Below are positions 28,080 to 40,692 of a stretch of DNA of 64,000 nucleotides, piece after piece. Origin of the DNA: Escherichia phage ES19; the sequence record MN508616.2. The stretch is one strand, 5' to 3'. Every line of letters starts with the position of its first letter. Positions within the stretch are counted from its first letter, which is position 1. The translations under genes were made by a program, and so were the position numbers. The notes beneath the pieces were generated by a model. The model searched no databases and was not told where the DNA came from. It was given only the letters and a program-made list of their open reading frames with translations.

Positions 28080-28661
28080 CTAACCGAGCTTTTTAGTTAA
28101 TTCATTCCAATGTTTTCTACACAAAGAAACATAAATTTCATCACCAATACAGATTTGATTACCTTCTTTAACTGGTGTTCCATCTTCCATTAATCGAGCT
28201 GTCATAATAGCTTTTTTACCACAATGACAAACTGCCTTTAGTTCAATAAGTTTATCTGCAATCGCCAAAAGTTCTTTAGAACCTTCAAATAATTTTCCAG
28301 CGAAATCAGTCCTTAGCCCATAAGCCATAACAGGAACATTATATGTATCAACAATTCGACTTAATTGATGCACCTGTTCAGTTTTTAAAAACTGAGCTTC
28401 ATCTACAAATACACAATGAATATCTTTTTGTGCTTCAGCCCATTTATAGAACTCAAAAATATCCATATCATCCGTAATAATATTCGCTTCCTGCTTAATT
28501 CCAATGCGAGAAACGACTTCACAGACAGAATCGCGAGTATCAATAGCAGGCTTAAGAACTAATACACCCATTCCGCGTTCTTTATAATTATGTGCAGCAG
28601 TCAAAAGAGAAGCAGATTTTCCAGCATTCATTGCTGCGTAAGTAAAAATTAAACTCGCCAT
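28080..28661 (-). CDS. tk: thymidine kinase
   Basis: 193 aa; P-loop NAGKSASLL; C-terminal Cys pairs (CHCGKK ... C..C) typical of type II TK. Confidence 0.9.
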   Translation of the reverse strand: MASLIFTYAAMNAGKSASLLTAAHNYKERGMGVLVLKPAIDTRDSVCEVVSRIGIKQEANIITDDMDIFEFYKWAEAQKDIHCVFVDEAQFLKTEQVHQLSRIVDTYNVPVMAYGLRTDFAGKLFEGSKELLAIADKLIELKAVCHCGKKAIMTARLMEDGTPVKEGNQICIGDEIYVSLCRKHWNELTKKLG

Positions 28662-28670
28662 ATCACCTTC

Positions 28671-28856
28671 TTAAAGCATATTCACATAAGCTATTAATTC
28701 GTTTTCTTTCTTATCAAACCGATCAGCAAATTCTTCTTGCTGTTCGGGAGATAGCGGGCCGTATTCATCATAAAAGGTGTTTGCTTCTGTATGCTCATCT
28801 AGAAGTTCATGGATAAGCTCAAACAATTTATCTTTTTGTTCTTTACTCAGACTCAT
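28671..28856 (-). CDS. hypothetical acidic protein (tk.1 position)
   Basis: 61-aa ORF; ATGA overlap with the upstream small ORF. Confidence 0.45.
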   Translation of the reverse strand: MSLSKEQKDKLFELIHELLDEHTEANTFYDEYGPLSPEQQEEFADRFDKKENELIAYVNML

Positions 28857-29026
28857 ATATTAATTTCCAGGAGTTTTAAAATAATTCGCTTTTGCTTAAA
28901 TATTTCCATAGTTAAATGACCAGTATCTTTTTGACCGATTCCAATGGCAAAACCTTTATTGACAGCGAGTTCAATTAAATTATCAAGCTCACGTAACACT
29001 TCATACTGTAACTCAAAACTATTCAT
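28853..29026 (-). CDS. small ORF (57 aa) below the track threshold
   Basis: ATG at 29026 forms ATGA overlap with the stop of 29023..29235, and its stop overlaps the tk.1 ATG; hand translation MNSFELQYEVLRELDNLIELAVNKGFAIGIGQKD... Confidence 0.4.
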   Translation of the reverse strand: MNSFELQYEVLRELDNLIELAVNKGFAIGIGQKDTGHLTMEIFKQKRIILKLLEINI

Positions 29027-29235
29027 TTCGGTTTACCTTCTTTAACGAAATCTGGATAAGGATAAAATCCCGAATAAAATCCTTCACCTTTATGATTGAT
29101 GCATCCTTTATTAGAACAATAGCACCAATAATCGAAATCACAAGCCATTTCATCGTTGCATAAAGCAAAAACAACTGGCCATTTACACTTTTCACAATGG
29201 GCATTTTTAAGAATACTAGTTTGGCTCATAACCAT
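29023..29235 (-). CDS. Cys-rich small protein (putative Zn-binding)
   Basis: 70 aa; HCEKC ... CNDEMAC ... CYCSNKGC; preferred over the overlapping frame 29019..29204 because of stop/start coupling with the downstream ORF. Confidence 0.4.
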   Translation of the reverse strand: MVMSQTSILKNAHCEKCKWPVVFALCNDEMACDFDYWCYCSNKGCINHKGEGFYSGFYPYPDFVKEGKPK

Positions 29236-29453
29236 GTAACCTTTAAGCAGTATTCTTCTACATGCTGTTTACGACCTTTCTTATCAATAAAGGTATATTC
29301 AACGAATGTTCCAATGTAGTCTTTATCTACATCATGCGGACTATTAATTGGACATTTAGTACGGCAAATGCGTTCCCATTGACGAATAATTACTGCCTTA
29401 TTCTTTGGGTCATATGGATGTGGATAATGTATATTCATAATAACGGTTCCCAA
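29226..29453 (-). CDS. hypothetical protein
   Basis: 75-aa ORF. Confidence 0.45.
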   Translation of the reverse strand: MGTVIMNIHYPHPYDPKNKAVIIRQWERICRTKCPINSPHDVDKDYIGTFVEYTFIDKKGRKQHVEEYCLKVTWL

Positions 29454-29902
29454 TCAACAATCACAATTTCTAATTTAGAGGAATATGTATCTAAAATCCC
29501 CTCAATAATATCCCAGTTCCCTTTACCTATGCCTGCACCAATCCTAGGCATATAGATTGTAGGTTTAATCAGTTTATTTTCACCAAACTCATTTAATTCT
29601 AACATACAATTCATTAAAGCGGAATACTCAAAATTTGGCCCTGGTTGAAATTGAGTATAAAGGTTGAAGCAATACGCTTTATGAGTCCTAAAGTATTTTT
29701 CATAGACTGAGTAAGAACCGAGTTTAGTTACATCACCCCATTCAGTCTGTAATTTATCAGCTTCCAAAATTTTAGGGAAAGCTTTGGTTAATTGACCCGC
29801 TACGCCTGAACCCATAGTATGAAAACAATTGCATCCATGCGCAATATTTTTACCTTCAGCGAAAAGGGTGACAATATCGCCCTTGATATATTTTACAATC
29901 AT
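29435..29902 (-). CDS. macrodomain-like protein (putative ADP-ribose binding/processing)
   Basis: 155 aa; motifs in macrodomain order: GDIVT, NIAHGCN, GSGVAGQL, IGAGIGKG; call rests on motif pattern only. Confidence 0.45.
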   Translation of the reverse strand: MIVKYIKGDIVTLFAEGKNIAHGCNCFHTMGSGVAGQLTKAFPKILEADKLQTEWGDVTKLGSYSVYEKYFRTHKAYCFNLYTQFQPGPNFEYSALMNCMLELNEFGENKLIKPTIYMPRIGAGIGKGNWDIIEGILDTYSSKLEIVIVDWEPLL

Positions 29903-30240
29903 CTAGTACTCAATCCTCGATTATAAGAATCTACCAAACGGTCAACCATTGAATGACAAGCGGCTTTATCTTTCTCCTCCGCAACTGAACATTCTAAGGT
30001 ATTCCACTTTTTAGCATATCGTTTTAATAATGTATCGTTTTTGTATCTGCTTGATTTATCTCTTTCTCCGTCTTTATATGCATATATTAATTTCTGCGCA
30101 AATTCAGCTTGGCATGCTTTATTTTTCCCACAATAATCCGCGGCAGTACGGTTTACATACTCTCTAATTTCAGTATATGATGTATCTGCTAACGCAGAAA
30201 ATGAAATTAATCCTATACATAAAACCAAAATTTTAGTCAT
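29899..30240 (-). CDS. secreted/periplasmic small protein
   Basis: 113 aa; N-terminal signal-peptide-like MTKILVLCIGLISFSALA; four Cys. Confidence 0.5.
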   Translation of the reverse strand: MTKILVLCIGLISFSALADTSYTEIREYVNRTAADYCGKNKACQAEFAQKLIYAYKDGERDKSSRYKNDTLLKRYAKKWNTLECSVAEEKDKAACHSMVDRLVDSYNRGLSTR

Positions 30241-30778
30241 TTACTATTTCCAAAAGTTTATTATTTTTAAGGTAATTAGCCTTTTCTAGGACTTCAGAAG
30301 CATATTTAGAACCAGCTTTAACATTCCATCCCGAATTATAAGAGGATATTGCTTTTCTTATATCGCCCTTATGTATATTTAACCAATAAGAAAGTTCAAT
30401 GTACGCCCAGGAAGCTGAATTGGATCGTTTATTCAACATTCTTTTTATTTCAGCATCGGTCATATTATAACCAAGTTCCTTAACTCTTGCTCGCATAGTA
30501 GGCAAATAATTTTGGAACATTCCATAAGCGTGATGCTTTGGTTTAGATTTTAAATTAACTCCGCCAGAGCTTTCTTGCCATAAAATGGCTGCCATTATAT
30601 GGCCTAATCCGCTCTTGTGGATGTTTTTGTGTGTTTTATATTTTCCATCCTTAGAAAATTGTTCCCCGAATTGATACGCGTAACGCATGTTATCGAGTTG
30701 GACATTACTGAAAGTATGCTCGGAGCTATGTGCCATCATTGAAATGGCCAATAGACCAGCGAGTAGTGCTTTTCTCAT
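30233..30778 (-). CDS. exported lytic transglycosylase-like protein (SLT domain)
   Basis: 181 aa; signal peptide MRKALLAGLLAISMMAHS; ILWQESSGG catalytic-Glu motif and YGMFQ motif. Confidence 0.55.
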   Translation of the reverse strand: MRKALLAGLLAISMMAHSSEHTFSNVQLDNMRYAYQFGEQFSKDGKYKTHKNIHKSGLGHIMAAILWQESSGGVNLKSKPKHHAYGMFQNYLPTMRARVKELGYNMTDAEIKRMLNKRSNSASWAYIELSYWLNIHKGDIRKAISSYNSGWNVKAGSKYASEVLEKANYLKNNKLLEIVND

Positions 30779-30785
30779 GCTTACC

Positions 30786-31247
30786 TCATTGAGTTTTAAT
30801 TACTGCTTTAGAAGCCTTTCCTGGTAAACGACGACTGTTGATAATTGCCATCCTGCATTGAAGTGACGGGTTTTTGAACTTCTCATTAGGCTTACAAACC
30901 GTAAATCCAAGCCAAAGATTTCCATCTGTGATTTCTAAACGTCCAGGACGATATTCAACCCCATCAATAAAATCCTCGTCAATGTCAGGACGCGGAGGCA
31001 TACTCAGGAATTCATTAACTTCTAAAACATGGTCTTTTATTTTATGGAATAATTCAAAAACATATGTCTCATCAATCTCCCGTTGAATTGCACGATCAAG
31101 AAGATGTTGAGAATATTTTAGATGAAACGATGAGACTCCTGCTGCTTTTGATGCCTCACGAATCTCATTGTTAATTTGACGAAACTCCGACTCAAAATGA
31201 CGACGAAGCTTATTTCGACGGATAAAAACTTCTGTATTGATAGTCAT
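30786..31247 (-). CDS. regB: site-specific endoribonuclease RegB
   Basis: 153 aa, T4 RegB length; downstream of an early promoter with RBS GAGGAGAA. Confidence 0.65.
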   Translation of the reverse strand: MTINTEVFIRRNKLRRHFESEFRQINNEIREASKAAGVSSFHLKYSQHLLDRAIQREIDETYVFELFHKIKDHVLEVNEFLSMPPRPDIDEDFIDGVEYRPGRLEITDGNLWLGFTVCKPNEKFKNPSLQCRMAIINSRRLPGKASKAVIKTQ

Positions 31248-31274: not shown

Positions 31275-31303
31275 ATTATACCACAGTCAAGAGGAAAAGT
31301 AAA
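31275..31303 (-). promoter_or_regulatory. sigma70-type early promoter (TTTACT-17-TATAAT, extended TGG)
   Basis: Read on the minus strand upstream of regB. Confidence 0.5.
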
Positions 31304-39674: not shown

Positions 39675-39750
39675 TGGTCGAGGCAGTAGGGATCGAACCT
39701 ACGACCTAGGACTTAGAAGGTCCTTGCTCTTCCTTCTGAGCTATGCCCCG
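39675..39750 (-). tRNA. tRNA-Arg (anticodon UCU)
   Basis: Cloverleaf folded by hand: acceptor CGGGGCA/TGCCTCG, anticodon loop CTTCTAA, T-loop TTCGATC, encoded CCA. Confidence 0.8.
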
Positions 39751-39754
39751 TAAT

Positions 39755-39830
39755 TGGGGTGACCGATGGGAGTCGAACCCATGACTACGAGAATCACAAT
39801 CTCGAGTTCTACCAACTGAACTACGGCCAC
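39755..39830 (-). tRNA. tRNA-His (anticodon GUG)
   Basis: Acceptor GTGGCCG/CGGTCAC, anticodon loop TTGTGAT, T-loop TTCGACT, encoded CCA. Confidence 0.75.
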
Positions 39831-39924
39831 ATTAATACCTACTCCAACAATCAAGATGTCTTCACACGAAATTAAGAGAAGAGTGATCAGTTCAACCCCT
39901 ATAATCGCGTCAAGTAGATATTAA

Positions 39925-39940
39925 TGTGACAGTTGTCACA
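39925..39940 (-). repeat. perfect hairpin tgtgac-agtt-gtcaca in the spacer between tRNA-Asn and tRNA-His
   Basis: 6-bp inverted repeat read directly; candidate processing site. Confidence 0.4.
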
Positions 39941-39944
39941 AATT

Positions 39945-40019
39945 TGGCGGACGTGATAGGATTCGAACCTATAACCAATCGCTTAACAGGCGATCGCTCT
40001 GCCATTGAGCTACACATCC
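39945..40019 (-). tRNA. tRNA-Asn (anticodon GUU)
   Basis: Acceptor GGATGTG/CACGTCC, anticodon loop CTGTTAA, T-loop TTCGAAT, encoded CCA. Confidence 0.8.
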
Positions 40020-40023
40020 AAAT

Positions 40024-40110
40024 TGGTGGGGAGTGGTGGAGTCGAACCACCCGAGTCGCAATGACAATGGATTTACAGTCCACACCGCTACCTCTACGGG
40101 ATAACTCCCC
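40024..40110 (-). tRNA. tRNA-Tyr (anticodon GUA), long variable arm
   Basis: Acceptor GGGGAGT/ACTCCCC, anticodon loop CTGTAAA, T-loop TTCGACT, encoded CCA; 87 nt. Confidence 0.75.
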
Positions 40111-40119
40111 AAATTAATT

Positions 40120-40194
40120 TGGTGGCCCTGGGTGGAATTGAACCACCATCTGGCGATTATGAGTCGCTTGCTTGAACCTTCCAGCTACAGGGCC
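40120..40194 (-). tRNA. tRNA with CAU anticodon (Met, or Ile if C34 is modified)
   Basis: Acceptor GGCCCTG/CAGGGCC, anticodon loop CTCATAA, T-loop TTCAATT, encoded CCA. Confidence 0.7.
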
Positions 40195-40195
40195 T

Positions 40196-40271
40196 TGGTG
40201 CTGATTGACGGAATCGAACCGCCGACCTTCTCATTACAAGTGAGTTGCTCTACCTACTGAGCTAAATCAGC
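40196..40271 (-). tRNA. tRNA-Thr (anticodon UGU)
   Basis: Acceptor GCTGATT/AATCAGC, anticodon loop CTTGTAA, T-loop TTCGATT, encoded CCA. Confidence 0.8.
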
Positions 40272-40276
40272 AAAAC

Positions 40277-40366
40277 TGGCGGAGGCGATAGGATTTGAAC
40301 CTATGAGTCGCCGGAGCGACTGCCGGTTTTCAAGACCGGTGCATTAAACCACTCTGCCACGCCTCC
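40277..40366 (-). tRNA. tRNA-Ser (anticodon UGA), long variable arm
   Basis: Acceptor GGAGGCG/CGCCTCC, anticodon loop CTTGAAA, T-loop TTCAAAT, encoded CCA; 90 nt. Confidence 0.8.
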
Positions 40367-40368
40367 AG

Positions 40369-40442
40369 TCTCCGTGGCAGGATTTGAACCTACGACATTC
40401 TGCTCCCAAAGCAGACGCTCTACCAAACTGAGCTACACGGAG
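40369..40442 (-). tRNA. tRNA-Pro (anticodon UGG), CCA not encoded
   Basis: Acceptor CTCCGTG/CACGGAG, anticodon loop TTTGGGA, T-loop TTCAAAT; only 2 nt separate it from tRNA-Ser (dimeric precursor arrangement as in T4). Confidence 0.8.
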
Positions 40443-40452
40443 TAAATTAAAT

Positions 40453-40526
<74 letters not shown>

Positions 40527-40531
40527 AAATT

Positions 40532-40618
40532 TGGTGCGAGAAGTGGGACTCGAACCCACAAGGAAATCATTCCGCAGCATTTTAAGTGCTGTGCCTTTAC
40601 CAATTTGGCCATTCTCGC
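40532..40618 (-). tRNA. tRNA-Leu (anticodon UAA), long variable arm
   Basis: Acceptor GCGAGAA/TTCTCGC, anticodon loop CTTAAAA, T-loop TTCGAGT, encoded CCA. Confidence 0.8.
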
Positions 40619-40619
40619 G

Positions 40620-40692
40620 CTGGGAATAAAGGACTCGAACCTTTGCATCCTGGAATCAAAATCCAGTGCCTTACCAACTTGGCTAATTCCCA
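40620..40692 (-). tRNA. tRNA-Gln (anticodon UUG), CCA not encoded
   Basis: Acceptor TGGGAAT/ATTCCCA (U1-A72), anticodon loop TTTTGAT, T-loop TTCGAGT; 1 nt from tRNA-Leu (Gln-Leu dimeric precursor as in T4). Confidence 0.8.

Follow-up and report, generated by a model that had tools for sequence, protein, structure and literature searches.

The gene tk.4 of Escherichia phage ES19, now also called adfM, encodes a stand-alone macrodomain of the TARG1/ALC1-like class, in whose active site a glutamine, Q84, stands where DarG and TARG1 have their catalytic lysine. The best explanation of the whole, and one that we consider probable, is that this protein is made early in infection and removes ADP-ribose from DarT2-modified DNA by means of an active site of the kind found in SCO6735 of Streptomyces coelicolor. 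The gene is already known, named and annotated, and its role against DarTG2 was reported in 2025. To this we add the Q84-for-Lys active site, the likeness to SCO6735, and the distinction between Tk.4 and a second phage protein called AdfM, that of PhiKZ. The identity of the gene, and the fold, class and active-site residues of its product, are established by our own analysis; that T4 requires the gene for resistance to DarTG2 is shown in the literature. Enzymatic removal of ADP-ribose from DNA, Gln-based chemistry and early co-transcription are the inferred parts of the account.

The gene and its surroundings

The DNA that we analysed, ‘the window’, is a stretch of 64,000 nucleotides of phage ES19 (sequence record MN508616.2). 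The tk.4 coding sequence occupies positions 29435-29902 on the minus strand, starts with ATG, and specifies a protein of 155 amino acids that is a single-domain macrodomain. It is flanked on one side by vs (29899-30240), and on the other by tk.3 (29226-29438), which matches DUF7202 over its full length. The Pfam scan that located these neighbors also located tk, the thymidine kinase gene (28080-28661); vs.1, whose product has an SLT transglycosylase domain (30233-30778, minus strand); and regB, for RegB (30786-31247). An earlier note on this DNA had assigned the open reading frame (ORF) to the tk–vs cluster, and that is where it lies: between vs and tk.3, with tk and regB close by.

The gene overlaps both of its neighbors. 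Its start codon (29902-29900) lies on the stop codon of vs (29901-29899), the two sharing the sequence ATGA (29899-29902, minus strand; direct reading and ORF coordinates). Its stop codon (29437-29435) lies on the start codon of tk.3 (29438-29436) in a second ATGA (29435-29438, minus strand; direct reading), if tk.3 starts where the T4 annotation has it. The first overlap suggests translational coupling between vs and tk.4, and the two together show the tight packing that is usual in T4 early gene strings. A GAGGA sequence at 29914-29918 (minus strand), 11 nt from the ATG and within the 3' end of vs, is a possible Shine–Dalgarno sequence for tk.4.

The protein is identical to Tk.4 of phage T4 (NP_049723) at 154 of 155 residues. 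The sole difference, T here for A in T4 at residue 12, is conservative and falls outside the conserved positions. In T4, too, the gene sits in the slot between vs and tk.3, its start and stop codons overlapping theirs in the same way; near-identity and position alike thus identify it as the T4 orthologue. The surrounding 3.3-kb segment is 100% identical to that of Escherichia phage ES21, and at least 99.5% identical to the 25 matches listed, all of them T4-like phages (Tequatrovirus). Judged by its near-identity to T4 Tk.4 and by its abundant relatives, the ORF is a real gene and not a chance one. In the T4 reference record (RefSeq NC_000866), tk.4 is labelled ‘phosphatase; contains A1pp phosphatase motif’, and in other phage records ‘macro domain protein’ or ‘Poa1p-like family protein’.

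Several features nearby, and elsewhere in the window, differ from T4 or from its annotation. The segment between tk and tk.3 (28662-29224, minus strand) is unlike the tk.1/tk.2 segment of T4, and not collinear with it: 181 nt align, with 68.5% identity, whereas the DNA on both sides is approximately 98% identical to T4. It holds three small ORFs, among them a Cys-rich ORF of 70 amino acids (29023-29235) that has no T4 counterpart in the slot. Farther away, at 39675-40692 (minus strand), are 11 tRNA genes, for Arg, His, Asn, Tyr, Met/Ile (CAT), Thr, Ser, Pro, Gly, Leu and Gln. In reference T4 there are eight, with the homing endonuclease gene, segB, between tRNA-Arg and tRNA-Ile; here segB is absent, and its slot (39755-40110) is occupied by the genes for tRNA-His, Asn and Tyr. 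The vs.1 product, which the T4 reference record calls only a ‘hypothetical protein’, has a hydrophobic N-terminus and scores 25.1 bits (cut-off 21.3) against the SLT lytic transglycosylase profile. NC_000866 also enters the product of tk.3 as ‘Tk.2’, an apparent annotation slip, and labels mobD.4 ‘molybdopterin-guanine dinucleotide biosynthesis protein MobD’, probably through a collision of gene names.

The best candidate from a consensus scan is a tentative promoter of the sigma-70 type, directly upstream of regB at 31275-31303 on the minus strand; it reads TTTACT-17-TATAAT and has a TG upstream. This promoter could drive regB, vs.1, vs, tk.4 and tk.3 as one early transcript, and early co-transcription of tk.4 with regB, vs.1 and vs is plausible. 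Scanning for sigma-70 promoters and terminators between 28 and 33.5 kb returned 21 sites, against 21.4 in shuffled sequence, and provides no reliable transcription map; a pattern search of the same region found no MotA-box middle promoter. A terminator-like hairpin at 29864-29884 lies inside tk.4, on the opposite strand, and was taken to be due to chance. Over the whole window, the MotA-box pattern (TGCTTNA-N11-13-TANNNT) occurs 18 times, where 5.4 occurrences are expected; the minus strand carries 15 of them, and none falls between 14.4 and 39.5 kb.

Fold, class and active site

The earlier note had proposed from motif order that the ORF encodes a macrodomain. The three motifs are all present, in the order that it gave—GDIVT (residues 8-12), GSGVAGQL (31-38) and IGAGIGKG (121-128)—and the proposal holds when searched against profiles and modelled. 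The Pfam Macro profile, PF01661, matches with 27.7 bits (gathering cut-off 22; E 2.9e-6) over profile positions 2-113 of 118. The AlphaFold2 model, built from a purpose-made alignment of 77 homologous sequences, is confident (mean pLDDT 95.8; pTM 0.91), and displays the three-layer alpha/beta/alpha fold, with a central mixed sheet, by which macrodomains are recognized. The nearest structural neighbors belong to the TARG1/ALC1-like class, and not to the MacroD-type, PARG-type or viral macrodomains. Tk.4 is, then, a member of the TARG1/ALC1-like class.

Dedicated searches of two further collections each returned a single match, and in both cases this was DarG. PADLOC matched the N-terminal, macro part of DarG (1.1e-9), and NCBIfam matched antitoxin_DarG (NF048014) with 30.5 bits, against an equivalog cut-off of 250, over profile positions 2-146 of 338. 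We considered, and rejected, membership in the DarG family, for three defining features fail: the score, the C-terminal domain with its darT gene, and the catalytic lysine. In DarTG2 systems, DarG (Thermus aquaticus, PDB 5M31/5M3E; Mycobacterium tuberculosis, 5M3I) has a C-terminal DarT-binding domain and is accompanied by the gene for the toxin. Tk.4 has neither; it consists of the macrodomain only, and its neighbors are vs and tk.3.

The residue of most consequence is Q84. It lies in the motif Y82-T83-Q84 (codons at 29651-29659, minus strand), at the position occupied by Lys80 of T. aquaticus DarG, Lys84 of human TARG1 (OARD1), and the essential Gln85 of SCO6735. Aligned by hhalign, the Tk.4 family and TARG1 match with a probability of 98.4%, and the catalytic pair of TARG1, K84 and D125, falls opposite Q84 and G126. 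A MAFFT alignment of Tk.4 relatives, SCO6735, BT1257 of Bacteroides, TARG1, both DarG macrodomains and gp104 of PhiKZ, anchored by the DarG structures, gives the same division: the column contains Q in the Tk.4 relatives, BT1257 and SCO6735, and K in TARG1, both DarGs and gp104. The entire Y-T-Q motif is invariant among the 77 homologues, and Q occupies position 84 in all 260 of the relatives pooled from two database searches. Because Gln stands where DarG and TARG1 carry their catalytic Lys, the T4 AdfM is no orphan DarG.

The rest of the active site agrees with this assignment. The active-site loop, H22-G23-C24-N25 (codons at 29828-29839, minus strand), is highly conserved (H22 in 72/77 homologues, G23 in 76/77, C24 in 73/77 and N25 in 76/77), and its H22, G23 and N25 align with H24, V25 and N27 of SCO6735. 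Two glycine-rich loops are predicted from the sequence to hold the diphosphate of ADP-ribose. The first, G31-S-G-V-A35 (codons at 29797-29812, minus strand), contributes G31-x-G33, a GxG following the second strand; the GxG motif is conserved in Macro domains (PMC9503650). G33 and A35 are invariant among the 77, and G31 is present in 70. The second loop, I121-G-A-G-I-G-K-G128 (codons at 29519-29542, minus strand), contributes I121-G-x-G124; I121, G122 and G124 are invariant, and G122 and G124 align with G126 and G128 of SCO6735. Comparison of the Tk.4 profile with the PDB pairs H22, N25, Q84 and G124 with SCO6735 H24, N27, Q85 and G128, so that the Gln and its supporting Asn, His and Gly, by which the SCO6735/BT1257 site is defined, are all present in Tk.4.

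SCO6735 (PDB 5E3B) and BT1257 (PDB 2FG1/2AFC) share with Tk.4 this Gln-type active site, at an identity of just 20-28%. SCO6735 strips DarT-made thymidine-ADP-ribose from DNA in vitro, and protects cells (PMC9411070). Replacing Q85 by A or E abolishes its activity, N27S almost does so, and G128E lowers it; the mechanism proposed is water-mediated, and employs no catalytic lysine (PMC9411070). The Gln-for-Lys active site makes SCO6735, and not DarG, the proper mechanistic model for Tk.4. The ‘orphan DarG’ model is wrong at the catalytic residue, and the targets for mutagenesis are therefore Q84, N25 and G124, and not a lysine.

The likeness has limits. The SCO6735/BT1257 subclass is defined by a positively charged mobile loop, five residues longer than the loop of DarG and TARG1, which is said to underlie the high activity of SCO6735 on DNA (PMC9411070). 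In our comparison, this loop is 5-6 residues longer in SCO6735 and BT1257, and carries Lys89, whereas Tk.4, like TARG1 and DarG, has a six-column gap in its place. Among the 77 relatives, the loop has the short length of 8 residues in 48, and 11 residues in 23. Lys34, which contacts DNA in SCO6735, is Ser in Tk.4, and the signatures differ too: H-G-C-N-C and Y-T-Q in Tk.4, H-V-C-N-D and I-G-Q in SCO6735. Going by these alignments, the best description of Tk.4 is that of a short-loop, ALC1-like macrodomain of the Gln type. It lacks both the lysine of DarG and TARG1 and the mobile loop of SCO6735, and extrapolation from either enzyme is therefore imperfect.

The database labels raise another candidate for comparison, yeast Poa1p, an ADP-ribose-1''-phosphate phosphatase. 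Poa1p residues H23 and S30, known only as the names of mutants in PDB entries, align with H22 and T29 of Tk.4; a literature search on Poa1p found nothing that defines its catalytic residues. If the label ‘phosphatase’ were taken at its word, Tk.4 would be a small-molecule enzyme that disposes of metabolites derived from NAD, whether as an ADP-ribose-1''-phosphate phosphatase or as an O-acetyl-ADP-ribose deacetylase. We judge this highly improbable. Such labels as ‘phosphatase’ and ‘deacetylase’ derive from the name of the domain and not from assays, and Poa1p has Ser where the Tk.4 family has its invariant Gln. Nor would small-molecule activity account for the finding, taken up below, that tk.4 is needed specifically in DarTG2 hosts and is dispensable elsewhere. 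To our knowledge, T4 has no enzyme of the Tpt1/KptA type, and so would have no source of ADP-ribose-1''-phosphate.

Resistance to DarTG2

The genetic evidence for the role of tk.4 comes from a single preprint, and concerns T4 itself. In November 2025, its authors described HIDEN-SEQ, in which a T4 transposon library was screened on Escherichia coli expressing DarTG2, with phage T5 as the DarTG2-sensitive control (10.1101/2025.11.20.689424). The single significant hit was tk.4, the only T4 gene required on this host, and a clean knockout of tk.4 rendered T4 sensitive to DarTG2; the gene was accordingly given the new name adfM, for ‘anti-DarT factor, Macrodomain’ (10.1101/2025.11.20.689424). The suggestion in the earlier note that the protein might reverse DarT-type immunity thus has a genetic demonstration in T4. 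Enzymatic removal of ADP-ribose from DNA by Tk.4 ‘seems likely’ to the authors of the preprint (10.1101/2025.11.20.689424). We found no report, in the searchable literature, of hydrolysis of ADP-ribosylated DNA by Tk.4 in vitro, and no mention of Tk.4 in two reviews of viral ADP-ribose biology (PMC8120803, PMC9503650). Against DarTG1, which modifies guanine, T4 deploys a different enzyme: AdfN, a NADAR protein that is the product of gene 30.3 (PMC11825919).

The sequence of events that we favor is as follows. Tk.4 is probably produced early in infection, from within the packed regB–vs.1–vs–tk.4–tk.3 string. In a host with DarTG2, the toxin DarT2 places ADP-ribose on thymidines of single-stranded phage DNA, and blocks replication. 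Tk.4 most likely holds the ADP-ribose by its two glycine-rich loops, and most likely cuts the bond between thymine and ribose, restoring the DNA. The invariant Q84, kept in place by N25, would orient the distal ribose so that hydrolysis could proceed through water, a reaction that would need no catalytic lysine.

Protection could also be imagined to proceed mainly without catalysis, by stoichiometric binding that blocks DarT2 or its DNA substrate. The dead Q85A mutant of SCO6735, the closest characterized relative, inhibits DarT in vitro more than dead DarG or dead TARG1 does (PMC9411070), and the preprint evidence for Tk.4 includes no catalytic mutants (10.1101/2025.11.20.689424). Because dead SCO6735 inhibits DarT directly, protection by Tk.4 need not be purely enzymatic. 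We nevertheless think it unlikely that blocking is the main mode of action. The active-site residues tested in SCO6735 are invariant, or nearly so, in 77 to 260 diverse relatives of Tk.4, which argues for selection for catalysis. The 155 amino acids of Tk.4 include no equivalent of the DarT-binding, C-terminal domain of DarG. And the hosts of these relatives are many and differ in their DarT2 enzymes, which favors action on the product that these enzymes have in common.

An erasing activity might instead be directed mainly at other marks. Tk.4 might reverse or tune those of the T4 enzymes Alt, ModA and ModB, or strip ADP-ribose from RNA, and resistance to DarTG2 would then be a side effect; to this we attach very little probability. 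Alt, ModA and ModB modify arginine, and we know of no cleavage of the arginine–ADP-ribose linkage by macrodomains of the TARG1/ALC1-like class. The requirement for tk.4 was reported only with DarTG2, and not in standard conditions. The idea in the earlier note that the protein tunes the phage's own ADP-ribosyltransferases finds no support. Homologues of Tk.4, moreover, occur across many phage groups. What commends such a role is that T4 has three ADP-ribosyltransferases (cited in PMC8120803); that TARG1, DarG and SCO6735 also clear uracil-linked ADP-ribose from RNA (PMC13036486); and that SCO6735 acts on a protein substrate as well (PMC9411070). [quoted passage not shown]

Relatives, and a second AdfM

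The name AdfM now covers two non-orthologous phage proteins with different catalytic residues. Gp104 of the chimallivirus PhiKZ (L003:12518-13006) was given the name independently (Cell Rep 2026), and removes ADP-ribose from DarT2-modified DNA in vitro (PMC13309987). It has in common with Tk.4 the name, the target system and the broad fold; in BLASTP, the two proteins barely match, with an E of 0.005 over 23 residues. Gp104 instead closely matches M. tuberculosis DarG (9.4e-25) and retains the catalytic Lys, in an FPTK motif. It is also imported into the phage nucleus, a structure that T4 does not have. A direct alignment of the Tk.4 family with gp104 by hhalign was poor around the catalytic residue, and the MAFFT alignment was used in its place. 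By these comparisons of sequence, the two AdfMs are not orthologous: gp104 is of the Lys type and DarG-like, and T4 Tk.4 is of the Gln type and SCO6735-like. If the Gln-type chemistry is borne out in a phage enzyme, phages will have arrived at the removal of ADP-ribose from DNA on at least two occasions within a single class of fold.

Relatives of Tk.4 are numerous. By tblastn, they occur in 2,752 of 50,697 phage records, from many host genera. A profile search, in which each cluster at 50% identity counts as one representative, found 1,358 at E<=1e-30; with E<=1e-10 the number rises to 9,818. By this measure, Tk.4-type macrodomains appear as a large lineage of their own. We tentatively propose, as a possibility that we rate somewhat below even, that the T4-type AdfM is not a captured DarG but belongs to this separate, very large, phage-rich Gln-type lineage, with its SCO6735-like site and its short, DarG-like loop; that its recruitment against DarT2 was independent of that of the chimallivirus AdfM, which is of the Lys type, and that it works without a catalytic lysine; and that it may also erase ADP-ribose linked to other bases, for example to uracil in RNA.

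Some database relatives are fused to other domains. One, of 472 amino acids (P0214), joins a Tk.4-type Macro domain to NADAR and DUF4326 in one protein; another, of 302 amino acids (P0217), joins DUF4326 to Macro. The NADAR fold removes guanine-ADP-ribose from DNA (PMC11825919), and the presence of thymine-type and guanine-type erasers on the same chain is in keeping with a function in clearing ADP-ribose from nucleic acids. The domain content of the two proteins suggests that they are multi-eraser, anti-ADP-ribosylation proteins, and the Macro–NADAR–DUF4326 fusions hint at a broader anti-ADP-ribosylation toolkit.
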